Shown here: piece by piece, positions 1 to 10,432 of the stretch
Layout: the number at the start of each line of letters is the position of its first letter
Position numbering within the stretch: the first letter of the stretch is position 1
IMG/VR virus record: IMGVR_UViG_3300027974_000021
Strand: one strand, 5' to 3'
DNA length: 64,000 nt
From: a virus
Translations under genes and position numbers: made by a program
Notes under the pieces: generated by a model
Databases searched by the model: none
What the model saw: only the letters and a program-made list of their open reading frames with translations
What the model was told of the DNA's origin: nothing

Positions 1-292
1 ATACGAGACTGTAGTTAGTTTCTTGGGAGAAAAACCTATTTGGGCACCGAAGTCAAAAATAGGACATACCCTTGCAGCTGCTGGAGTGTTAGAGTGTATA
101 TATGCGATTCTTTCAATGCAAAGAGGAATCATACCACATATACAAAATTTAAAAAGTGCTTTTTGTGACACTAAAAATATTTTAGTTCGCGAGAATTTAA
201 ATACTAACAAAAAAGTTTTGCGAACATTAAATAACTCATTCGGATTTGGGGGAAAATGTATGTCGCAAGTAATAGAGGTAAATAAAGAATGA
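1..292 (+). CDS. fabF: Beta-ketoacyl-ACP synthase (FabF/FabB type), C-terminal part; 5' end lies outside the window
   Basis: KSKIGHTLAAAG and NNSFGFGG motifs of the ketoacyl synthase C-terminal domain; reading frame is open to the left edge. Confidence 0.88.
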   Translation, partial: YETVVSFLGEKPIWAPKSKIGHTLAAAGVLECIYAILSMQRGIIPHIQNLKSAFCDTKNILVRENLNTNKKVLRTLNNSFGFGGKCMSQVIEVNKE

Positions 293-441
293 CAACAATA
301 ATACTTTTATCAATCGGTGTTATAATCGGTTGGACTTATAAGCCAGCATTTGCTGATAATTTTATAAACAAATCTAAAGAAATTTTAAGTGGTGTTTTAA
401 CTTACTTAAAAGCTCTTGTTAAAAAAGGAGACAATAAGTAA
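289..441 (+). CDS. Small putative membrane protein (50 aa, MTTIILLSIGVIIGWTYKP...), not in the ORF track
   Basis: ATGA overlap with the fabF stop; hydrophobic N-terminus; fills the gap to the next gene exactly. Confidence 0.65.
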   Translation: MTTIILLSIGVIIGWTYKPAFADNFINKSKEILSGVLTYLKALVKKGDNK

Positions 442-442
442 A

Positions 443-859
443 ATGGCACAAGTAGAAACAAACACAAAAACGGAATTGACAAATTCCAAGGAGATTCCCC
501 AACGTCAAACATCTTGGGGTTATCATTTAATTATTGATGCAGCAGGTTGCACTAAAAACTTTCAAGACCCAGTGGTTTTGAAAACTTTTTTAAATGACCT
601 TTTAGTTCGCATCGACATGAACGCATGGGGTGAGCCATGGATAACTCACTTTGCTGAAAAACCAGAGATCGCTGGATGGACAGTAATACAAGCATTGACT
701 ACAAGTTCATTAACAATACACTTTTTAGATAATAATGGTGATTGTTATTTTGACTTGTTCTCATGCAAAACTTTTGATATTGAAATGGTGAAAACTATGA
801 TAAAAGAATATTTTGATCCTATTTCAATGAAGGATCAATATTTTGTTAGACAAGCATAA
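443..859 (+). CDS. speD: Pyruvoyl-dependent decarboxylase of the S-adenosylmethionine decarboxylase (SpeD/SpeH) family; substrate uncertain
   Basis: GYHLIIDAAGC, LTTSSLTIHF (self-cleavage region), FDLFSCKTFD; AGGAG at ~426-430 favours ATG 443 over TTG 416. Confidence 0.8.
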   Translation: MAQVETNTKTELTNSKEIPQRQTSWGYHLIIDAAGCTKNFQDPVVLKTFLNDLLVRIDMNAWGEPWITHFAEKPEIAGWTVIQALTTSSLTIHFLDNNGDCYFDLFSCKTFDIEMVKTMIKEYFDPISMKDQYFVRQA

Positions 860-1328
860 TATAACACCAAAAGAAGCATTACAAGAGTGGTTGGCGAGAC
901 TTAAAATACCTCGCCAAGCACTTGATGGTCATTCTATATGTCCATTTAGTAAAGGAGTCAGTGTACCTACACCTGAAGACTTAAACATCGATAACTCTTT
1001 TCGTCCTCCTGCATTATGGGAGATTAAAAAAATTAAAATTTACAACATAATCAATCCGAATATTACACCAACAGAATTAGATGAATGGTGTGATTATTAC
1101 ATAAACAAATATGAAAATTATATGTTTATAGCAGACCATAAAGACAGAGATACACACATTAATGGAATTAAAACAAATAATGGTTATTTTAACTTTATGT
1201 TAGTTCAAAGTTTGCCTGAATTGAATGAAGCACGTAGAAATTTATTAAAAACAACCAACTATTATAGTTTCTGGGATCCTGAATATTTAAAAGATACTTG
1301 GAATAATAGTTTTGATAAAGAAGAATAA
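843..1328 (+). CDS. Hypothetical protein with a CPF motif (DUF1415-like N-terminus)
   Basis: LQEWL...ICPFSK pattern; overlaps the upstream gene and abuts the downstream one. Confidence 0.55.
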   Translation: MLDKHNITPKEALQEWLARLKIPRQALDGHSICPFSKGVSVPTPEDLNIDNSFRPPALWEIKKIKIYNIINPNITPTELDEWCDYYINKYENYMFIADHKDRDTHINGIKTNNGYFNFMLVQSLPELNEARRNLLKTTNYYSFWDPEYLKDTWNNSFDKEE

Positions 1329-1330
1329 TT

Positions 1331-2413
1331 ATGAGTGTTTGGACAGATTATGATCCGTTGAAAGAAATTATTATAGGAAGTATTCCTACACCTGAATACT
1401 TTTCAAACTTTCTAAAACCAGATATCCTAGAAGTCCTTACACCCATTATAAAAGAAACACATGAAGACTTAAACAAGTTTGCTAATATATGTATTTCTTT
1501 AGGAGTAAAAGTATATAGACCAAAAGTGTTAGACTTTCGTGAACCACTTAGACTTCCAGGATTTAAAATTAAGAATCCAATATCACCTTTAGTGCCAAGA
1601 GATAGTTATCTTGTTTATGGTAATACAATTTATTCTTCATATACTAGTATGGCTGATAGATGGTTAGAGTCATTATCATTCTACGATATCTTTATGGAAA
1701 AGTTTGTAGAAGGATATAATTGGTTATCAACACCAGTACCACAATTAAAAGACTTTAGACCTGACACTCAATGGTACACGCATGGTGGCGATCGTTATGG
1801 AGTAGAATTAAAAGATAAAATATTATGGCATTGTGCTACTATGTACAAATGTGGTGATAGTTTAATTATTAATTCTTCGGGTCCAGGAACTAAATTAGGA
1901 TATGACTGGATGCAACGTAATATACCTGATACTAAATTTATAAAGAATTCAAATAAGCCACACAAAGGATGGGGACATATAGATCAATTTTTCTTTCAAA
2001 CGGATGATAATACAGTATTTTGTACTAATAAAAATTATGTCCCAGATGTATTCCTAAATAATAGTAAGTTCAAAGTACATGAATTTGGTCACTTAATTAA
2101 AGATGTAGATATGAAACAATATGAACATCGTCTAGCACAAACAGATGGTAAATATAGTATTGAATGGATTGATGAGTGGATAGATGAATGGAGAGGTTTC
2201 GCACAAGAAGTAGCATTTGATAGTAATGTAGTTGTAGTTGATAGTAAAAATGTAATTGTCACTAATGAACAACCAGCATTATCAAATTGGTTTAAAGAAT
2301 TTGGTATAACACTACATCCTGTTAATTTAAGACAGGGTGGTTTTTGGGATGGTGGTGTTCACTGTTTATCGCTTGATATTAAAAGAGATGGAGAGAAAAG
2401 AAATATCGTATGA
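1331..2413 (+). CDS. Amidinotransferase (glycine/inosamine-phosphate amidinotransferase family, pentein fold)
   Basis: WTDYDPLKEIIIG start, PRD, GHID and the C-terminal catalytic GGVHCLSLD motif. Confidence 0.88.
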   Translation: MSVWTDYDPLKEIIIGSIPTPEYFSNFLKPDILEVLTPIIKETHEDLNKFANICISLGVKVYRPKVLDFREPLRLPGFKIKNPISPLVPRDSYLVYGNTIYSSYTSMADRWLESLSFYDIFMEKFVEGYNWLSTPVPQLKDFRPDTQWYTHGGDRYGVELKDKILWHCATMYKCGDSLIINSSGPGTKLGYDWMQRNIPDTKFIKNSNKPHKGWGHIDQFFFQTDDNTVFCTNKNYVPDVFLNNSKFKVHEFGHLIKDVDMKQYEHRLAQTDGKYSIEWIDEWIDEWRGFAQEVAFDSNVVVVDSKNVIVTNEQPALSNWFKEFGITLHPVNLRQGGFWDGGVHCLSLDIKRDGEKRNIV

Positions 2414-3408
2414 GAAAAATTTATAACTGGATTAATCCAACCTATTATGTAGATTATGATAAATTAAAGGATGTAATAGTTCCTTTGATGCAAGAAGATT
2501 TACGTGAATGGATGATTAACAATCCGATCGAAACAAGCACTGAGTGTGCTTATGCTCCACCAGAAGAAGTAGAAGAAAAGATATTATCCAAAAAAGAAGA
2601 GTTGAAGGCACATAAAAATCGAGCAATTGCTTATAAAGAAATTCTTACAGATGAAGCTGAAAGAAAACATTACAATGATTGGCGTTCTATTGATTTTCTT
2701 TATGAGTGTAAATGGAATAAAGAAGTTTTTAAAAGATCTTGGCAATTAATGTCTGAATGTAAAGGTATTAAACAAATCTTTATTAATTTTATAAAACCAA
2801 ATGGAATTATAACACCACATTTAGATACTTCTACTTGGGAAAAGATAGAAGAAGATTGGGGTTTGCCACTTTATTCATTAGAGGGTGGAAGTATTATTGC
2901 TACATTATTTACAGGTATGAAAAACAGAGAAGAAAAGACTGTTGGAATGAAAGTAAATGGTGTTTATAAGTTTCCATTAGCAGGAGAATTAGTTTGTTTT
3001 GATGGAAGATGGAATGAACATCAAATGTGGAACAACACAAACGAGTGGAGAATTACAGCAGTAATAGATATTGATAGAAAATACTTTACTCAAGTGTTAG
3101 AGGATGTTGATGAAGAAAAGAAAGAAATAAACAGACCAAAAGATAGTCTTACGATAACAGAAAATGCAACAATTAAATTTCAAAAATCTTTTAGTAAAGA
3201 AGAAGTAGAATATTATTTAAATCATGGTTTAACTGAAAAAATAGAATTTTTAAAAGAAAAAATACTTTGGTTGAATGAATATTCTGGGCGTAAAATATAC
3301 GCAGACCATTTAGATGAAATTTCAACAACAACTTTTTTAAATGCTAATATAACAAAAATAGATATATATTTTAAAAATTATAAGGAATATTATGTACATA
3401 GCACCTAA
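2410..3408 (+). CDS. AspH/LpxO-like 2OG-Fe(II) hydroxylase, paralog 1 (with ~100 aa C-terminal extension)
   Basis: FIKPNGIITPHLD ... CFDGRWNEHQMWNNTNEWRITAVIDID: HxD, distal His and 2OG-binding Arg. Confidence 0.82.
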   Translation: MRKIYNWINPTYYVDYDKLKDVIVPLMQEDLREWMINNPIETSTECAYAPPEEVEEKILSKKEELKAHKNRAIAYKEILTDEAERKHYNDWRSIDFLYECKWNKEVFKRSWQLMSECKGIKQIFINFIKPNGIITPHLDTSTWEKIEEDWGLPLYSLEGGSIIATLFTGMKNREEKTVGMKVNGVYKFPLAGELVCFDGRWNEHQMWNNTNEWRITAVIDIDRKYFTQVLEDVDEEKKEINRPKDSLTITENATIKFQKSFSKEEVEYYLNHGLTEKIEFLKEKILWLNEYSGRKIYADHLDEISTTTFLNANITKIDIYFKNYKEYYVHST

Positions 3409-4078
3409 TTCATATATTAATTATGTTCAATTATTAGATCATTATCCTAAATTAGTTGAGGATATGAATAAATGGCTTAATACACATACACCAGAAAGAG
3501 ATTCAATTGCTGTATATTCTGATGATCCTGCAAATAAGTTTTTGTCCACTACAACAAACTTTGTAGAAAGCTGGACAACTGAAGAAGAAAAGCAACATCG
3601 TTATGATTGGAAATCTATTCCTGTGTTTTTTGAAAAAGCGTGGAACACAAAAGACTTTCCTAGATTTTCAGAATTTGGTAAAGATTTAAAAGGATTGAGA
3701 CAATGTCTTATTAATTTTATTGCTCCACGTGGTAAAATTACAATACATAAAGATCACGACAATTGGGGTAAGATGACAGAAGATTGGGGATTTAAGTGTG
3801 AAGGATATTCATTAGTTGCTACTTTAAAAACAGGAATGAAAAAAGCTACAGATAAAACAGTAGGAACATGTATTAGAGATATTAAAACTGGAACTGACAC
3901 TTGGAGTTATGCATTAGTAAATGAATTTGTTTGTTTTGATGGATTAAATTATAACCATGCAATTACTAACAATACAGATGAATGGAGAATTTCAGCAGTA
4001 TTTGATATTGATAAAGAAAAATTTGATCCTAGTTTTGTTAAAACTGATAAACAAGTTTGTGATTATTATGTGGATTGA
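3392..4078 (+). CDS. AspH/LpxO-like 2OG-Fe(II) hydroxylase, paralog 2
   Basis: FIAPRGKITIHKD ... FDGLNYNHAITNNTDEWRISAVFDID. Confidence 0.82.
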   Translation: MYIAPNSYINYVQLLDHYPKLVEDMNKWLNTHTPERDSIAVYSDDPANKFLSTTTNFVESWTTEEEKQHRYDWKSIPVFFEKAWNTKDFPRFSEFGKDLKGLRQCLINFIAPRGKITIHKDHDNWGKMTEDWGFKCEGYSLVATLKTGMKKATDKTVGTCIRDIKTGTDTWSYALVNEFVCFDGLNYNHAITNNTDEWRISAVFDIDKEKFDPSFVKTDKQVCDYYVD

Positions 4079-4751
4079 TGTAAAAAGATATAAAGATTAT
4101 AAAAAATTATTTGATTATCAAAATATTTTAAATCTAGACATAAAAAACTGGTTAAAAAACAATGATCCTATAAAGAATACAGAACCAGTTTATGAAGAAA
4201 GAGCAAGTAGTCAAGAGTCATATGGGAAACTTAATCCTGATGGTACTATAACTTCTATCAGTTCGAAGTTTAGTGAACCACCAGCAGATCCTACAAAGAA
4301 TCCAGAAGAATACGCACACAGAAAAGATTGGAGATGCGTAGGTGGGTTTTATGAACGTACATGGAACACAAAAATAATAAAAGAATCATTAAAAGCTTTA
4401 ACTATGTTAAGTGGTTTAAAACAATTAAATATAAATTTTCTTTGTCCCTTTGGTAAAATAACTTCTCATTTAGACGATGGTGGGTGGAAAAAAATATCAG
4501 AAGATTGGGGTAAAGAAACTTACGGATATAGTATAGTACAAACAATTCAATCAGGTATGACTGAATCATCATCAGAGTTAGTTGGCATGCGTGTAAATGA
4601 TGTTGATAAATATCCATTAGTTGGAGAATTAGTTTGCTTTGATGGTATAAAAGGATTACATAGCATGTGGAATAATACAAATATATGGCGTATTACTGCT
4701 GTGTATGATATAGATATAAACGCATTTAATAAATATAGTATATGTGGATAG
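4068..4751 (+). CDS. AspH/LpxO-like 2OG-Fe(II) hydroxylase, paralog 3 (start corrected to MWIDVK)
   Basis: FLCPFGKITSHLD ... FDGIKGLHSMWNNTNIWRITAVYDID; N-terminus aligns with the paralogs from ATG 4068. Confidence 0.82.
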   Translation: MWIDVKRYKDYKKLFDYQNILNLDIKNWLKNNDPIKNTEPVYEERASSQESYGKLNPDGTITSISSKFSEPPADPTKNPEEYAHRKDWRCVGGFYERTWNTKIIKESLKALTMLSGLKQLNINFLCPFGKITSHLDDGGWKKISEDWGKETYGYSIVQTIQSGMTESSSELVGMRVNDVDKYPLVGELVCFDGIKGLHSMWNNTNIWRITAVYDIDINAFNKYSICG

Positions 4752-5329
4752 ACGCAACAAAATATAAACATTACGAAGTTCTTAAAACAAGTTTAATTCC
4801 TGCATTGGAGTTAGACTACAATAGATTCATTCGTAAATTTGATATTACAGAAACAGGTGTAAATGTATTTCGATTTGAATATCCTAATCGAGAAGACGAT
4901 CATGCTGATGATTGGTGGGCTATACCACTTATTCAAGGAGGTGAAGCAGTACCACCTTTAAGAAATCCATGGCAACATGCAACAGCAAGTTTAAAAGAAA
5001 TTCCTGGAGTATTTCAATCAATCGTAAATTTTATAAAACCAAATGGTGGATTGCCAATGCATCATGACTTTGGTAGTTGGCAAAGAATAGAAGAAGCATT
5101 AGGTTATCCAGTAAAAGGATATACAATAGCTATTGGTATTGACATGCCATCAAACGATCCGAATATTTGTGGTATGGAATTTGAAAATGATACTTTTCCA
5201 AGAACTTATGGAAATAAGGAAATAGTAGCATTTAATGGACGTGACTTTATGCATAAAGTATGGAATAAAACAGGAAATTGGCGTGTTTCTTGTGTAATTG
5301 ATACTGATATAAAGGATTGGAACAATTAA
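4742..5329 (+). CDS. AspH/LpxO-like 2OG-Fe(II) hydroxylase, paralog 4
   Basis: FIKPNGGLPMHHD ... FNGRDFMHKVWNKTGNWRVSCVID. Confidence 0.82.
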   Translation: MWIDATKYKHYEVLKTSLIPALELDYNRFIRKFDITETGVNVFRFEYPNREDDHADDWWAIPLIQGGEAVPPLRNPWQHATASLKEIPGVFQSIVNFIKPNGGLPMHHDFGSWQRIEEALGYPVKGYTIAIGIDMPSNDPNICGMEFENDTFPRTYGNKEIVAFNGRDFMHKVWNKTGNWRVSCVIDTDIKDWNN

Positions 5330-5334
5330 AACCC

Positions 5335-5363
5335 TTTACATACAATAAAAAATATAGTATAAT
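5335..5363 (+). promoter_or_regulatory. Sigma70-type (early) promoter TTTACA-N17-TATAAT
   Basis: TTTACA 5335-5340, 17-nt spacer, TATAAT 5358-5363; ATG 7 nt downstream. Confidence 0.75.
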
Positions 5364-5370
5364 ATAATCT

Positions 5371-5970
5371 ATGTGGCTTGGAAATCCTACATCTTATTCA
5401 AATTATAGTGCTTTAAGTGCTATGATGATTGCTTTAATGAGCGACTATGCTGAATGGCGAAGTCAAAGATCATTCGAAGATACAGTAAATGCTGACGATC
5501 GTTATTCTATGCCTATTAATAATAGAGGTGGGTTTAAAGCATTACCATTGATTGATGCTCGTAAAATAAACGAACAATTAGAAGATAGATATCTTTGGAA
5601 ACGTACTACTACTCAATTCTATAATATTCCTGGAGCAATAGACTTATGTGTCAATATGATACGTCCAGGAAAAATGTTGCCAGTACATCACGATGGTTAT
5701 GTTTGGGATTGGATACGTCAAAGTATGGGAGATCCTACAATTGAAGGATATACTGTAAGTTTTGGTATTGATATACCTGAACCTGAAAAGCAAGCATTAT
5801 TATTTGATGGTGAAAAGAAAATCTGGAAGACAGGTGAGTTTGTAGCATTTAACGGACACGATATTCAACACAGTTTAAAAAATGAAGCAACAAACCCAGA
5901 GCATTGGCGAGTGACGGCTGTAATGGAAATTGATAAAAAATATTTTAACAACTATTCTGTTGGTTTATGA
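5371..5970 (+). CDS. AspH/LpxO-like 2OG-Fe(II) hydroxylase, paralog 5
   Basis: MIRPGKMLPVHHD ... FNGHDIQHSLKN...WRVTAVMEID. Confidence 0.82.
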   Translation: MWLGNPTSYSNYSALSAMMIALMSDYAEWRSQRSFEDTVNADDRYSMPINNRGGFKALPLIDARKINEQLEDRYLWKRTTTQFYNIPGAIDLCVNMIRPGKMLPVHHDGYVWDWIRQSMGDPTIEGYTVSFGIDIPEPEKQALLFDGEKKIWKTGEFVAFNGHDIQHSLKNEATNPEHWRVTAVMEIDKKYFNNYSVGL

Positions 5971-6230
5971 GTTTAGATAACGATCAATTACAACAAGAAA
6001 TTTACGATGATATATTTAAGAATGCTATGGATCTTATAGTTAAACATTCAAGTAATTTAGAAGTTAATCAATTAGTTTCAAGTACGATGCTCGCAATAGC
6101 TATTCGTTTTTATAAATCAGCTTTAACTGATTTAGATTATCAAAAATTTTTAAATTCAATTATAGAAGTTGGACAAGAAGCAAGACCATTTGGTGTTGCT
6201 GAAATATTACCAAAAAGAAAATTGAATTAA
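5967..6230 (+). CDS. Hypothetical protein
   Basis: ATGA-coupled 87 aa ORF. Confidence 0.65.
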   Translation: MSLDNDQLQQEIYDDIFKNAMDLIVKHSSNLEVNQLVSSTMLAIAIRFYKSALTDLDYQKFLNSIIEVGQEARPFGVAEILPKRKLN

Positions 6231-6237
6231 CTAAATA
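6230..6237 (+). promoter_or_regulatory. Candidate T4-type late promoter (ACTAAATA)
   Basis: Variant of TATAAATA at an intergenic position; same octamer at 28917 and 45186. Confidence 0.4.
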
Positions 6238-6264
6238 GGTTTGCTTTTAACAGAGGAGGGTATT

Positions 6265-6369
6265 ATGACTCTTTTTGTTTATGAAGTAATAGTTCTTATT
6301 TTATCTGTTATTATGTTAGGAATATCTGTTTTTTATATGTTTAAAATTGACAAAGCAAAGAAAAAATAA
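6265..6369 (+). CDS. Small single-TM protein (34 aa, MTLFVYEVIVLILSVIMLGISVFYMFKIDKAKKK)
   Basis: Strong SD GAGGAGG immediately upstream; hydrophobic core with a basic tail. Confidence 0.65.
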   Translation: MTLFVYEVIVLILSVIMLGISVFYMFKIDKAKKK

Positions 6370-6384
6370 TTATTATTTTATACT

Positions 6385-6960
6385 ATGAATATCTTTTACT
6401 TAGATAAAAATCCTAAAATTTGTGCGACAATGCACTGCGATAAACATGTAGTCAAAATGATTATAGAGTATGCGCAGTTATTGTCAACTGCGCACCGAGT
6501 CCTAGACGGAACTTCAAACAACATCCTTACCAAATCAAAACGCAAATATACCACTTGGATTCATCCAACTCCATTAATGGAATCTACATTGTATAAATCT
6601 ACTATGAAGAATCATCCATCAGCTATATGGGTTCGTGAGAGTGTGTCACATTATGAGTATTTGAAAGAATTATGGAAACATTTATCAGACGAATATACTC
6701 ATCGTTATGGTAAGACACATAGCACTTATATCAAATTAAAAGATGTATTAAAATTAAATCCAATCAACATACCTAATATTCCATTCAAAGATCCACCACC
6801 AGCAATGAGTAATTTTCCATTATGTATTGTACCAAATAATAGTCTTTACTCTTATTATAATTATTACATAGTGGCAAAGAATTATTTTGCTAAATGGACT
6901 AATCGACCGATACCTGAATGGTACTCAACAGGGTTATCAACAAAGAAATTATATGCCTAA
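6385..6960 (+). CDS. Pyrimidine-dimer DNA glycosylase / DenV-related family protein
   Basis: MNIFYLD...HCDKHVVKMIIEYAQLLSTAHR and NHPSAIWVR motifs of this widespread phage family. Confidence 0.7.
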   Translation: MNIFYLDKNPKICATMHCDKHVVKMIIEYAQLLSTAHRVLDGTSNNILTKSKRKYTTWIHPTPLMESTLYKSTMKNHPSAIWVRESVSHYEYLKELWKHLSDEYTHRYGKTHSTYIKLKDVLKLNPINIPNIPFKDPPPAMSNFPLCIVPNNSLYSYYNYYIVAKNYFAKWTNRPIPEWYSTGLSTKKLYA

Positions 6961-7213
6961 TTATACATTTGAAAATAAAAAAACTAAAAAAGAATTTTCA
7001 TTAACAATGAAAATGGATGAACTTGAATTATATTTAAAAGCAAATCCAGATGTTCAACAAATATTTAATACATTTCCTGGAATTGCTGCACCATGGAACG
7101 TTGGAGGTGTGACTGGAAAAGCTACAAATGCAAAAAAAGGTTTTAAAGAGGTATTAAATAGAATACACAAACGTACTCCTGGAAGTCGTTTAAATAAAAC
7201 AACGGACATGTAA
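6953..7213 (+). CDS. Conserved T4-like hypothetical protein (FmdB-like N-terminus MPNYTFENK)
   Basis: MPxYxF start and GFKEVLNRIHK C-terminus typical of aquatic T4-like phages; start corrected to 6953. Confidence 0.65.
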   Translation: MPNYTFENKKTKKEFSLTMKMDELELYLKANPDVQQIFNTFPGIAAPWNVGGVTGKATNAKKGFKEVLNRIHKRTPGSRLNKTTDM

Positions 7214-7222
7214 GGATAAAAA

Positions 7223-7843
7223 ATGAGTATATTTACAGAAGAAAGATTAGGAAAAGCATTATATTTAACAGATGCAAATACATTAACCAATTGGTATAAT
7301 GCCTTACTCGATTCATTACCAGAAGATATGATTGAGAGTCCGAGTCGTATTGCTGGTTTCTTAGCACAAACATCACACGAGTCTGGTAAATATAAATTTT
7401 TAGCAGAAAATTTAAACTATTCTGATAAAGGTTTATTAAAAACATTCCCAAAATACTTTAATGAGAGTAATGTAATGGATTATGCTCGTAAGCCAGAAGC
7501 AATCGCAAATAGAGTTTATGCGAATCGTATGGGAAATGGTGATGAAGCATCAGGTGATGGTTGGAGATATTGTGGAAGAGGACTTATACAATTGACAGGT
7601 AAGAATAACTATCAAGCATTTGCTAATAGTGAACAAATGAATATAGAAGAAGTTCCTGATTATTTAATTACATATGTTGGTGCTGTAAGATCTGCTCTTT
7701 GGTTTTGGAATAAAAATAATTTAAATGACACAGCTGATCTCGGAGATTTACTAATGATGACAAAGAAAATAAATGGAGGAACACATGGACTTGCTGAAAG
7801 AACAGCTGAATACAAAAGAATCCTTGAAATATATTCAGCCTAG
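7223..7843 (+). CDS. Glycoside hydrolase family 19 endolysin
   Basis: FLAQTSHESG, ENLNYS, GDGWRYCGRGLIQLTGKNNY, INGGTHGLAER. Confidence 0.92.
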   Translation: MSIFTEERLGKALYLTDANTLTNWYNALLDSLPEDMIESPSRIAGFLAQTSHESGKYKFLAENLNYSDKGLLKTFPKYFNESNVMDYARKPEAIANRVYANRMGNGDEASGDGWRYCGRGLIQLTGKNNYQAFANSEQMNIEEVPDYLITYVGAVRSALWFWNKNNLNDTADLGDLLMMTKKINGGTHGLAERTAEYKRILEIYSA

Positions 7844-8525
7844 CAAAAGGTTCACTCATCTTTCAATTGAGTTTCCTAAGTTAGAAAGAATAGATTCTGC
7901 TGGGAGTAGAGTTTATAAAACACCAACAGGAAATCTATATCCTTCAGTGACAAGCATCACATCATTACAAAATAGATCAAGTATTATTGAATGGAGGACT
8001 AGAGTAGGAAATACTGAAGCAAATCGTATATCAAAACAAGCATCATCACGTGGTACTTTAATTCATAAATGGTCTGAAAAGTATTTACTTAATGATGGAT
8101 TTGAATATGATACAGAAGATTTAGTAGAAACAACTTTGTCTCAAGATTTTACTAATTTTATGCCAGTGTTAAATGAAATTGATAATATAATGGCACTTGA
8201 AACACCTTTATATTCTCATGAATTACAATGTGCTGGTACAGTTGATTGTATAGCTACATTTAAGAATAAAGTTTCTTTAATTGATTTTAAAACAGCATCA
8301 AGACCAAAAGAAAAGAAATGGATTCAAAACTACTTTATGCAAGCATCAGCATACGCACATATGTTTAAAGAATTAAAAGGACAACCTATACAACAAACTG
8401 TATTATTGTTTTTAGTAGATGGTGGTGAAACACAAATATTCACTGAGAATCCAAATAGTCATCTTGAGATGTTTAGATTTTATAGAGAACAATATAGAAA
8501 AGAAAATGAATTGGCAGTCGAATAA
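7773..8525 (+). CDS. PD-(D/E)XK exonuclease (T4-like phage exonuclease); true start probably somewhat downstream
   Basis: YPSVTSI, RGTLIH, AGTVDCIA, IDFKTA, YFMQASAYA. Confidence 0.85.
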   Translation: MEEHMDLLKEQLNTKESLKYIQPSKRFTHLSIEFPKLERIDSAGSRVYKTPTGNLYPSVTSITSLQNRSSIIEWRTRVGNTEANRISKQASSRGTLIHKWSEKYLLNDGFEYDTEDLVETTLSQDFTNFMPVLNEIDNIMALETPLYSHELQCAGTVDCIATFKNKVSLIDFKTASRPKEKKWIQNYFMQASAYAHMFKELKGQPIQQTVLLFLVDGGETQIFTENPNSHLEMFRFYREQYRKENELAVE

Positions 8526-8688
8526 AGGATTCGTCGCAAAAGAGTATAAAGCATTTGGTGAAAATGCATGGGGTCAAAAAGTATTTGTAATTAAGTATAA
8601 GGGATTTTCTAATGTCACAGTAGAGAATGATTTTAACCAATGGATAAAAGAAGTAGATGACCTCGCAATTGAAAAGAAAACAAAATAA
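8506..8688 (+). CDS. Hypothetical protein (60 aa, MNWQSNKGF...)
   Basis: ATG 8506 overlaps the exonuclease end. Confidence 0.55.
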   Translation: MNWQSNKGFVAKEYKAFGENAWGQKVFVIKYKGFSNVTVENDFNQWIKEVDDLAIEKKTK

Positions 8689-8729
8689 AACATTTAAATC
8701 TCCTTTTTTAAGTGGAAGTGATATGAAAC

Positions 8730-9950
8730 ATGTACGAACTAAAAGAAATAAGTCCAGCAGAAAATCTTAAGAGAGTTATTAAGACTGATGGATATTGGGT
8801 ACATTACGAGAATCGTACTAACTTAGAAGTACAGTCTGGTAATTGTTCGTTCACATTAGGTTATAATCATAAAGAATTAAAGAGTCTATTACCAACGAAT
8901 GAGATTGATTTTCTTCGTGGTAATAGTGGTGAGTCCGCAGAGCCTGTTGATCGTTTAAGTGAAACACTAACAAAAGAAGCTGGTATGGATGGCATCGCCT
9001 ATGCTGTATCTGGTTCAGATGGTAATGAGTGTGCTTTTTATATTAATGATTTATATTGGACTAATAAAGGTGAACCGAATCGAAGATATATAATTTCAAT
9101 ACCACCTTGTTATCATGGAACTACAGTTGTTTGTCGAAGTGCAAATAATGATATCGTAGAGAAAAGACAGAGTCGTTTTGTACCGATACGTGGAAGAACT
9201 TGGTACACAACAGAAGATAGTATTGCGAACGAAACAAATGTACTCGAACAAATAATCGAAACATTTAAGAGTCGTAATGATATTGGTGCTATTTTAATTG
9301 AGAGTTATCCATGGAATAAAACAATTGCTCCATGGAGTCATAACTTCTATCAACTACTACGTGCAACTGCTACGTTATATGGTGCAAATTTAATCGTAGA
9401 TGATATTGCAGGTTATGGTGGTAAGATAGGAACACTCTTTACTCATACAGCTTATAATATAAAACCTGATATGGTGACAATTGGTAAAGCACTTACAAAT
9501 GGACTAATACCATTATCAGCTTGTTTAATTAATGATAAAGTATTGAAACAAGTAAAGACTACATTTAATTGGGGGCATACTTGGCAACCGAATATGTATG
9601 GTGTGCGAGTAGCGAATCGTTGTATAGAGTTAATCAAAGAACGAATGGCATACTCGAAAGTAATCGAAAAGAATTTAAACGATATAGGTGATCGTTTAAA
9701 GAGTAAAGGACTCGTGAGAAACGTAATTGGGAATGGAGTATGGAAGTCTTTTGTACCAGAACCAAATCCAATACCAATCTCGTTAGCTGAGATTGATAAA
9801 GCAGGAATGTCAGCAACAACGAACGAGAATACAATTAAGACAATTATACCACTAATTGCTGATGATATATACTTTGAAGAATTAGAAAAGCGATTAGAGG
9901 TTTGCTTTACAAATATAAAAGAACAAAGAACACAAGGACTATTGATATGA
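8730..9950 (+). CDS. Class III PLP-dependent aminotransferase (BioA/ornithine/putrescine AT family)
   Basis: SGSDGNE, YHGTT, LIVDDIAGYGGKIG, PDMVTIGKALTNG (PLP lysine), WGHTW. Confidence 0.88.
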   Translation: MYELKEISPAENLKRVIKTDGYWVHYENRTNLEVQSGNCSFTLGYNHKELKSLLPTNEIDFLRGNSGESAEPVDRLSETLTKEAGMDGIAYAVSGSDGNECAFYINDLYWTNKGEPNRRYIISIPPCYHGTTVVCRSANNDIVEKRQSRFVPIRGRTWYTTEDSIANETNVLEQIIETFKSRNDIGAILIESYPWNKTIAPWSHNFYQLLRATATLYGANLIVDDIAGYGGKIGTLFTHTAYNIKPDMVTIGKALTNGLIPLSACLINDKVLKQVKTTFNWGHTWQPNMYGVRVANRCIELIKERMAYSKVIEKNLNDIGDRLKSKGLVRNVIGNGVWKSFVPEPNPIPISLAEIDKAGMSATTNENTIKTIIPLIADDIYFEELEKRLEVCFTNIKEQRTQGLLI

Positions 9951-10432
9951 ACGATAAACAATCTGCAGAAAAAACTACATATTTTCAATCAGAAAATGAA
10001 ATACCTGATTGGTATATAAACTATGCTGAAGGAACACCTGCATTTGCAGAGTACTTTAAACTTCAACTTCTTAAATTTGAACAGTTTGAAGATCAATCAC
10101 TTTTAAACACTGTTGCTCTTACAGTTGCAACTGTAAACAATTCAAAAGATCTAATGCATGATATAAGTCAAACGATGTTTGATAGAAATTTCGTGTATAG
10201 TCGAGATATGGTAATGGGAGCAATCGCTGAGTGCTTAAATGACTATGCATTAATCGATAAGAATTATATACTAGGAGAAGATACCGATGAAGCGAGAGTT
10301 CGAATGACTGTTGCAATATTAAGAGGTATGCCTAAATCGTTATTCCTTGATTGGAACGAAACAAGAACAGAAGAAGAGCATAAAATACGTGCGATTATTG
10401 GTATAGTTGACGTTATAAGCAAAATCATCTAA
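9947..10432 (+). CDS. Hypothetical helical protein, weak AhpD-like resemblance
   Basis: ATGA-coupled to the aminotransferase; lacks CxxC. Confidence 0.55.
   Translation: MNDKQSAEKTTYFQSENEIPDWYINYAEGTPAFAEYFKLQLLKFEQFEDQSLLNTVALTVATVNNSKDLMHDISQTMFDRNFVYSRDMVMGAIAECLNDYALIDKNYILGEDTDEARVRMTVAILRGMPKSLFLDWNETRTEEEHKIRAIIGIVDVISKII

Follow-up and report, generated by a model that had tools for sequence, protein, structure and literature searches.

What use a T4-like phage would have for an amidinotransferase homologue, coupled to a decarboxylase and followed by five tandem oxygenases, is the question raised by the start of a stretch of 64,000 nucleotides (hereafter the window) from IMG/VR virus record IMGVR_UViG_3300027974_000021. 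The source is an uncultured T4-like phage; the remainder of the window codes T4-type structural proteins, and a baseplate wedge protein shares ~40% identity with its counterparts in the pelagimyophages HTVC008M and Mosig and ~37-38% with the proteins from Melnitz methylophages and cyanomyophages. Our answer, which we advance tentatively and with slightly less than even confidence, is that this region represents an enlargement, peculiar to one clade, of a guanidino-tailoring module restricted to phages, one that would act on a small amine and yield a guanidino, possibly N-hydroxyguanidino, multiply hydroxylated product.

The genes of the cluster are real, since they are co-oriented, mostly overlapping and low in their ratio of nonsynonymous to synonymous substitution (dN/dS). 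The run of genes on the + strand is unbroken over window positions 1-10,000, with a GC content of ~0.30-0.32, and successive genes overlap by 4-17 nucleotides or lie 1-3 nucleotides apart, the sole exception being a gap of 41 nucleotides ahead of position 5371. Measured against the related locus L010, dN/dS indicates purifying selection, with values of 0.09-0.28 across the cluster and 0.52 for the third oxygenase; for the core genes, which overlap or abut, it is 0.09-0.15. An earlier annotation of this DNA, the original prediction, had claimed ten co-oriented, mostly overlapping + strand genes in positions 1-5970, and all ten are present. The cluster extends upstream past the window edge. IMG/VR contig G001 is 97% identical across window positions 1-9993 and reaches 13 kb further upstream, and it is from this contig (locus L003, with the cluster on the minus strand) that the upstream flank was read. 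Among cultured phages the cluster is without a match at the DNA level; only the endolysin and denV regions were matched.

The core of the cluster includes the amidinotransferase homologue. Although the protein reaches no Pfam family at E <= 0.01 and its match to PHROG 25854 (1.9e-15) is to a family of unassigned function, the profile of its family finds HsvA (4.9e-39), StrB1 (2.7e-34), SxtG (4.8e-29) and AGAT (8e-29) in the PDB, in two stretches over residues 2-356, and the single protein finds StrB1 best (5e-24), with SxtG, HsvA and AGAT also matching. C345 (GGvHC.sLD..R) and H216 (GHID) do not vary across 21 sequences and occupy the aligned positions of AGAT C407 and H303; Asp91 (PRD) and Asp218 (HID) are conserved as well. 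The FDAAD/N motif that holds the triad Asp (AGAT D254, StrB1 D179) aligns to LWH[T/C]AT in four of four alignments, and His167 is at least 90% conserved across the phage family. The active site was originally described as having intact D/H/C motifs, a description that is right for the Cys and the His but not for the triad Asp, whose place is taken by this nearly invariant His167.

The amidinotransferase family occurs in at least 576 IMG/VR viral contigs and in only four contigs among 185,579 GTDB species genomes, bacterial and archaeal; two of these four (L093 and L096) have phage-type neighbor genes and one (L094) looks bacterial. The core module is thus almost restricted to phages. Open reading frames were called and clustered on 92 fetched loci, 91 of them with the amidinotransferase, and the set was dereplicated to 47 loci at an amidinotransferase identity below 85%, with identities in this set down to ~40%. 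In 37/47 loci a CPF gene, for a 161-residue protein in the window, stands no more than two genes from the amidinotransferase, usually directly upstream and overlapping; a class III aminotransferase is found in 28/47 (adjacent in 20, often convergent) and a SpeD-like gene in 20/47. Beyond this core, gene contexts vary widely. Many loci have some Fe/2-oxoglutarate (2OG) oxygenase, 15/47 have a Trp halogenase, and various radical SAM families occur in 9-19/47; distant loci have an SDR-like gene ahead of the aminotransferase and amidinotransferase pair. The original prediction saw in the cluster a coherent pathway rather than scattered genes, and for the core this holds, because the CPF, amidinotransferase, aminotransferase and SpeD-like genes travel together; it fails for the ketosynthase, which is found in 3/47.

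Two of these core genes could supply an amine. The SpeD-like reading frame opens at TTG 416, and ATG 443 agrees with its relatives. Its product passes the cut-off of PF02675 (51.7 bits against 25, profile positions 1-106 of 107), and in alignments with 2iii and 1tlu its S97, H102 and C117 fall on the ES-H...H...C residues, so that its assignment to the SpeD-family decarboxylases is borne out with the processing Ser, His and Cys all kept. The processing site reads TTS where S-adenosylmethionine decarboxylase (AdoMetDC) has ES, with Thr rather than Glu before the Ser, and the score of 27.6 bits on TIGR03330 is under the AdoMetDC equivalog cut-off of 75.65; a PDB search with the protein alone gave nothing useful. 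Among phage SpeD homologues, a change of function to Arg or Orn decarboxylase is known (PMC9992855, PMC10407285). The class III aminotransferase originally noted downstream is confirmed there: over positions 14-397 of the 403 in the PF00202 profile it scores 140.2 bits, the cut-off being 30.5. A second class III paralogue lies on the other side of the cluster, ~10 kb upstream (L003:15416-16639:-), adjoined by an FkbM-type methyltransferase gene (L003:14059-14907:-); neither aminotransferase reaches an NCBIfam equivalog.

Common to 30 homologues of the CPF protein are W16, C33-P34 ([IV]CP[FY]AK), FLPDH, TNNG, Q122, R131, Y140-Y141 and W144; the numbered residues, and N113 with them, are invariant. 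The AlphaFold2 (AF2) model, with a predicted local distance difference test score (pLDDT) of 88.6, has four strands with helices on the flanks, and its best structural match among 48,161 PDB chains is AglA (9ub3_A), at a Z of 5.5 that is under the typical best Z of unmatched models (root-mean-square deviation 4.1, 141/161 residues; next Z 4.1). Foldseek with the same model found nothing in the PDB at E <= 0.001, and profile and single-sequence searches of the PDB with the family gave nothing useful. AglA, the prototype of the YqcI/YcgG enzymes, acts as a guanidine N-hydroxylase; its fold is a four-stranded sandwich, and Cys44 ligates its haem (PMC12866846). DUF6875, recently renamed cytochrome P422, is a family of haem proteins with a Cys ligand, and its motif is RxGxVCP (bioRxiv 10.64898/2025.12.11.692455). 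Five of the 30 CPF homologues match DUF6875 below the cut-off (best E 3.5e-4), the window protein itself not being among them; in the L019 homologue the match joins residues 9-49 to profile positions 3-45, that is, the N-terminal helix and the Cys motif. The family reaches no Pfam cut-off for DUF6875/P422, DUF1415 or YqcI/YcgG, and PF21780 and PF08892 are without a match in the related viral record G001. Three fetched bacterial DUF1415 members carry [VL]CPFA[KQ], and hhalign joins the CPF family to DUF1415 at 70.6% probability (E 3.9e-5, 104 columns; 47.6% with a 150-sequence alignment), against at most 2.3% for ten control families; with three P422 sequences it aligns only 26-27 columns near the Cys motif, at 23-29% probability. 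These lines are individually weak, but they converge, and we think it somewhat better than an even bet that CPF is a small haem-thiolate oxygenase of the DUF1415/P422/YqcI-YcgG kind. Because its neighbor is an amidinotransferase, an enzyme of guanidine chemistry, N-hydroxylation of a guanidine would be the chemically natural guess for its reaction. A bolder proposal, that the CPF proteins (138-161 residues) are a new minimal phage clade of thiolate-ligated haem oxygenases that N-oxygenate the guanidine from the coupled His-for-Asp amidinotransferase, seems to us improbable.

The five tandem oxygenases follow directly. All five paralogues, and two distant homologues as well, keep H137, D139, H204, N208 and R214 (HxD...H...N...R) without exception, and a profile of the paralogues matches human AspH at 2.4e-4, limited to the C-terminal ~55 residues; the match to OlsC is faint (E 0.0035). 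Their description as five AspH/LpxO-type hydroxylases therefore stands as far as the motif goes, all five keeping it, and is weaker at the level of the family, the PF05118 cut-off of 22.6 being passed by oxygenases 1 and 4 only, with 2 and 5 below it and 3 without a match. Every paralogue begins MWI, for which reason the start of oxygenase 3 is most likely 4068 and not 3957. Window-type AspH-like oxygenases are found in 14/47 loci. Upstream, in G001, three further proteins of 208, 197 and 255 residues (L003:5947-8063, minus strand) are paralogues that make up a single family, in which HxD...H, an N and an R are invariant. The AF2 model of this family, which we call the u197 type (pLDDT 90.5), resembles NO66, MINA53, proline hydroxylase H11, KanJ and PHD2 at E ~1e-4; profile and single-sequence PDB searches gave nothing useful. 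Judged from the model, the u197 type looks like an unnamed Fe/2OG oxygenase family that recurs in these islands (18/47 loci). Five AspH-like and three u197-type genes bring the number of oxygenase-like genes that surround the core in this clade to at least eight.

We suggest that these parts would work together as follows. An amine acceptor would come from an amino acid through the SpeD-like decarboxylase, or from a carbonyl through the class III aminotransferase; the HsvA/StrB1-like enzyme would then transfer an amidino group from arginine to the amine; the coupled CPF protein would oxidize the product, guanidine N-hydroxylation being the likeliest reaction; and the tandem Fe/2OG oxygenases would put on more hydroxyls. 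On top of this module the clade would have gained the FabF-like ketosynthase and at least three upstream oxygenase-like genes. Since HsvA is the closest enzyme and the SpeD-like gene is coupled, a polyamine-type substrate is the likeliest, and the product is probably a hydroxylated guanidino-polyamine-like compound. We infer every substrate, the binding of haem, the order of the steps and the biological role from the genes and their relatives.

Several observations weigh against this proposal. Because the triad Asp is replaced by His167, the reaction may differ from amidino transfer, although transfer by such an enzyme is still conceivable. The contigs are related, so the co-occurrence counts given above overstate independence. 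For the haem assignment of CPF, to the low Z score must be added that the sub-cut-off Pfam matches of its homologues cover the N-terminal ~40 residues only, that hmmsearch with the CPF profile against the fetched P422 and DUF1415 open reading frames gave no match, and that the cluster shows no obvious gene for a ferredoxin or reductase partner. The remaining objections concern the nature of the substrate. Enzymes of the AspH family (PF05118) characteristically act on proteins, peptides or lipids, and distant related islands hold genes typical of peptide tailoring, for SPASM and B12 radical SAM enzymes and Trp halogenases.

These last points would fit an alternative in which the target is not a free metabolite but a macromolecule: a virion protein, a surface glycan, or a small peptide of the ribosomally synthesized and post-translationally modified type. 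Residues would be hydroxylated by the AspH-like enzymes, and the amidinotransferase-like enzyme would form guanidino groups from the side chains of Lys or Orn or from an amino sugar. We consider this alternative unlikely, though likelier than the others. For the cyanophage S-SCSM2R the annotation lists amidinotransferase, SpeD, 2OG-oxygenase, halogenase and radical SAM genes, and proteins annotated as a glycine amidinotransferase and a 2OG oxygenase, likened to the window proteins by annotation only, were detected in the proteome of its CsCl-purified virions; this signal may, according to its authors, mean abundance rather than packaging (PMC12801897). In Campylobacter phage CP220 the gene pair stands beside glycosyltransferase-like genes. 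The cluster, however, yielded neither a candidate precursor peptide nor a leader-recognition protein, the nearest solved relatives of the amidinotransferase are all small-molecule enzymes, and the SpeD-like decarboxylase and class III aminotransferase suit small-molecule chemistry.

More doubtful is the view that these are independent auxiliary metabolic genes in a hypervariable T4-like region, in which only CPF and the amidinotransferase form a true pair and the oxygenase array and ketosynthase serve unrelated ends. The low frequencies of the ketosynthase and the window-type oxygenases would be expected of such a collection, as would the variability of the array: oxygenase copy number ranges from 4 to 7 between close relatives (L008-L016, L014/L017), the middle copies are the most divergent (57-75% identity vs 91-96% for core genes), and the oxygenases evolve faster than the core (dN/dS 0.13-0.52). 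The array is, moreover, separated from the aminotransferase by the genes for an 87-residue protein, denV, a GH19 endolysin and a PD-(D/E)XK nuclease. Against this, the 4-17 nucleotide overlaps link the genes as one translation unit, an oxygenase lies within two genes of the amidinotransferase in 9/47 loci whose other neighbors differ, and the SpeD-like and aminotransferase genes recur where other content differs.

That the module acts on nucleotides or on the DNA of the phage, for instance by placing or reworking an amine or guanidino group on a base, is very improbable. One distant pair (L021) does lie among genes for dNMP-kinase-like, dCMP deaminase, IMPDH-like and adenylosuccinate-synthetase-like proteins, HIT and QueD-like genes follow the enzyme in one subgroup, and some islands have a QueC-like gene; but such nucleotide contexts are found in a minority of loci, and the genes in the window have no coupled gene for a DNA transferase, kinase or glycosylase. 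We know of no DNA modification that employs this amidinotransferase family.

The ketosynthase, cut by the window edge, bears on the last alternative. In G001 the full gene (L003:4748-5926:-) codes 392 residues with both ketosynthase domains (PF00109, PF02801) and an intact Cys-His-His triad (CStG, HaTSTpvGD and GHtlGAAG, aligned to FabF 4r8e). Its score of 212.8 bits on TIGR03150, under the equivalog cut-off of 493.75, marks it as a divergent ketosynthase and not a housekeeping FabF orthologue. The only matches of tblastn against phage records were at ~25-31% identity, mostly to unannotated fragments and some bacterial-named genes, so that there appears to be no close phage FabF-like homologue. 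All three of the dereplicated loci with the gene fall within the clade of the source phage; it occurs as well in L028, a locus outside the dereplicated set, from a relative at 46% identity whose downstream genes are the same, and there it lies 7 kb away from the core and is coupled to u197-type oxygenases. Beside the three u197-type proteins, the G001 flank codes proteins of 223, 281 and 182 residues, likewise without a Pfam match, and a 57-residue zf-CHCC protein, and further upstream come DUF6433, T4 RNase H, the FkbM methyltransferase and the second class III aminotransferase. The set of amidinotransferase, ketosynthase and hydroxylase resembles the logic of the cylindrospermopsin and saxitoxin pathways. 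Even so, an acyl chain started by the ketosynthase and then aminated, amidinated and hydroxylated to a guanidino/amino-acyl lipid that remodels the host envelope is the least probable of the readings considered: the ketosynthase triad is intact, the gene runs in the same direction as the next one with a 4-nucleotide overlap, and LpxO and OlsC are PF05118 members, but the acyl carrier protein, acyltransferase or ligase originally predicted upstream is absent from the 13-kb flank, none of these nor a thioesterase was found in the 13 kb upstream or 4 kb downstream, and 44/47 loci keep the core without a ketosynthase, so that this reading is left without support.

Table 1. Genes at the 5′ end of the window
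Feature	Position	Strand	Basis and remarks
Ketosynthase 3′ end, FabF-like beta-ketoacyl synthase	2..292	+	PF02801, E 3e-10; window edge cuts gene
50-residue protein, hydrophobic N-terminus, possible membrane anchor	289..441	+	Homologues only in 14 close loci; dN/dS 0.21
SpeD-like pyruvoyl-dependent decarboxylase	443..859	+	PF02675, 51.7 bits; phrog_3125, 2.7e-19
161-residue CPF protein, probable small Cys-ligated haem oxygenase (from sequence and model)	843..1328	+	Translationally coupled to amidinotransferase gene
Amidinotransferase homologue (HsvA/StrB1/SxtG/AGAT-like)	1331..2413	+	Cys345, His216; His167 replaces triad Asp
AspH-like Fe(II)/2OG oxygenase 1, ~110-residue C-terminal extension	2410..3408	+	PF05118, 24.4 bits (cut-off 22.6)
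AspH-like oxygenase 2	3392..4078	+	PF05118, 17.4 bits, below cut-off; motifs kept
AspH-like oxygenase 3, start revised from 3957	4068..4751	+	No Pfam match; paralogue, motifs kept
AspH-like oxygenase 4	4742..5329	+	PF05118, 29 bits; motifs kept
AspH-like oxygenase 5	5371..5970	+	PF05118, 18.4 bits, below cut-off; motifs kept
87-residue protein, no family match	5967..6230	+	4-nucleotide overlap with oxygenase 5; kept in 14 close loci; dN/dS 0.13
Class III (pyridoxal phosphate) aminotransferase	8730..9950	+	PF00202, 140.2 bits; 2.76 kb past 5970

Scans for regulatory signals gave little. The T4 late-promoter motif TATAAATA has 3 matches in 64 kb, vs 10.9 expected, and none in positions 1-10,000; scans for sigma-70-like promoters and for terminators found no excess over shuffled sequence. 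Two near-consensus sigma-70-like promoters, at 5335-5363 (TTTACA-17-TATAAT) and 6347-6376 (TTGACA-18-TATTAT), occupy the sole sizeable gaps, ahead of oxygenase 5 and of denV.

Some relatives of the module have unusual surroundings. In the 40%-identity relative L021 (3124-14749) the CPF and amidinotransferase pair is set in a context of nucleotide metabolism, its neighbors being dNMP-kinase-like, dCMP deaminase, IMPDH-like, two JAB-like, adenylosuccinate-synthetase-like (possibly PurZ-like), two DUF6065 and a sulfotransferase. A subgroup lacking CPF (L067:9588-12014, L068, L075, L079-L083, L086 and L091) has instead an unrelated protein of 137-215 residues, beginning MATW, upstream of the amidinotransferase, and HIT and 6-pyruvoyl-tetrahydropterin-synthase (QueD-like) genes downstream of it. 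In the only cultured phages with a homologue (26% identity; L023, Campylobacter phage CP220, NC_027997 70690-78497) it lies among six radical SAM and two glycosyltransferase-like genes, and the upstream gene, gp085 (173 residues), is without the Cys-Pro motif. Among bacterial sequences, the DUF1415 proteins L101:1444-2022, L102:1432-1992 and L097:1366-1941 cross-match DUF6875/P422 at 16-28 bits, which, with their [VL]CPFA[KQ] motif, suggests that DUF1415 belongs to the same Cys-ligated haem superfamily; DUF1415 is not named in the passages of the P422 paper that were consulted.

If the proposal of a guanidino-tailoring module is right, the T4-like phages that abound in aquatic habitats conduct, while they infect, a guanidino chemistry of their own that starts from arginine, and the notion of auxiliary metabolism widens from boosting host pathways to producing new compounds. 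The newly recognized non-P450 haem-thiolate oxygenases would gain a viral branch of minimal size, and to the amidinotransferases would be added one whose catalytic center has been rebuilt. Were the minimal haem clade also real, hundreds of aquatic phages would make N-hydroxyguanidine-type compounds, a chemistry unknown in viruses, and such compounds could serve as antimetabolites, or as nitric-oxide or hydroxyurea-like donors. The original prediction knew of no characterized phage pathway with this combination of genes, and for the literature that we searched this remains so: no paper was found that characterizes the module or assigns it a function, and the pelagimyophage survey paper makes no mention of these genes.

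Among the known systems closest to the module is the hsv pathway to phevamine A, its amidinotransferase HsvA (PDB 5wpi) being the best match of the family profile and sharing the Cys, the His and the substrate-binding Asp residues. The substrate of HsvA is a polyamine, which fits the SpeD-like gene that adjoins the phage enzyme. HsvA, however, keeps the canonical FDAAD Asp at the position that His167 takes in the phage enzymes, works with the ATP-grasp ligases HsvB and HsvC, of which the phage cluster has none, and is bacterial, whereas the phage family is almost only viral. The best single-sequence match, StrB1 (PDB 1bwd), belongs to the streptidine branch of the streptomycin pathway, where a carbonyl is converted to an amine and the amine to a guanidine, a logic that fits the recurrent pairing of aminotransferase and amidinotransferase in the phages. 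Unlike the StrB1 system, the window is without cyclitol or sugar genes, kinase or glycosyltransferase; the phage aminotransferase is of class III and not of the StsC type, and the triad Asp is replaced, unlike in StrB1.

The CPF protein has its nearest likenesses among AglA, P422 and DUF1415-type proteins. Its invariant N-terminal Cys-Pro resembles their axial-ligand motif, and the four-stranded sheet between helices that is reported for AglA and P422 recalls the four strands and flanking helices of the CPF model. The guanidine chemistry of AglA matches the enzyme that neighbors CPF, while the P422 enzymes act on tryptophan; CPF has 138-161 residues against 180-300 for the proteins of these families. 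The SpeD-like protein has the same small class 1b AdoMetDC fold, with the same Ser, His and Cys, as the neofunctionalized phage SpeD proteins, which likewise come from aquatic phages (PMC9992855, PMC10407285); those papers report no amidinotransferase neighbor, and the window protein has TTS as against ES. What is specific to this window is the chain of SpeD, CPF, amidinotransferase and five oxygenases, together with the extra u197-type oxygenases and the clade-specific ketosynthase. Tandem small Fe/2OG oxygenase paralogues occur in T4-like cyanophages, and it is by being chained to an amidinotransferase core and a ketosynthase that the array of the window differs from them.

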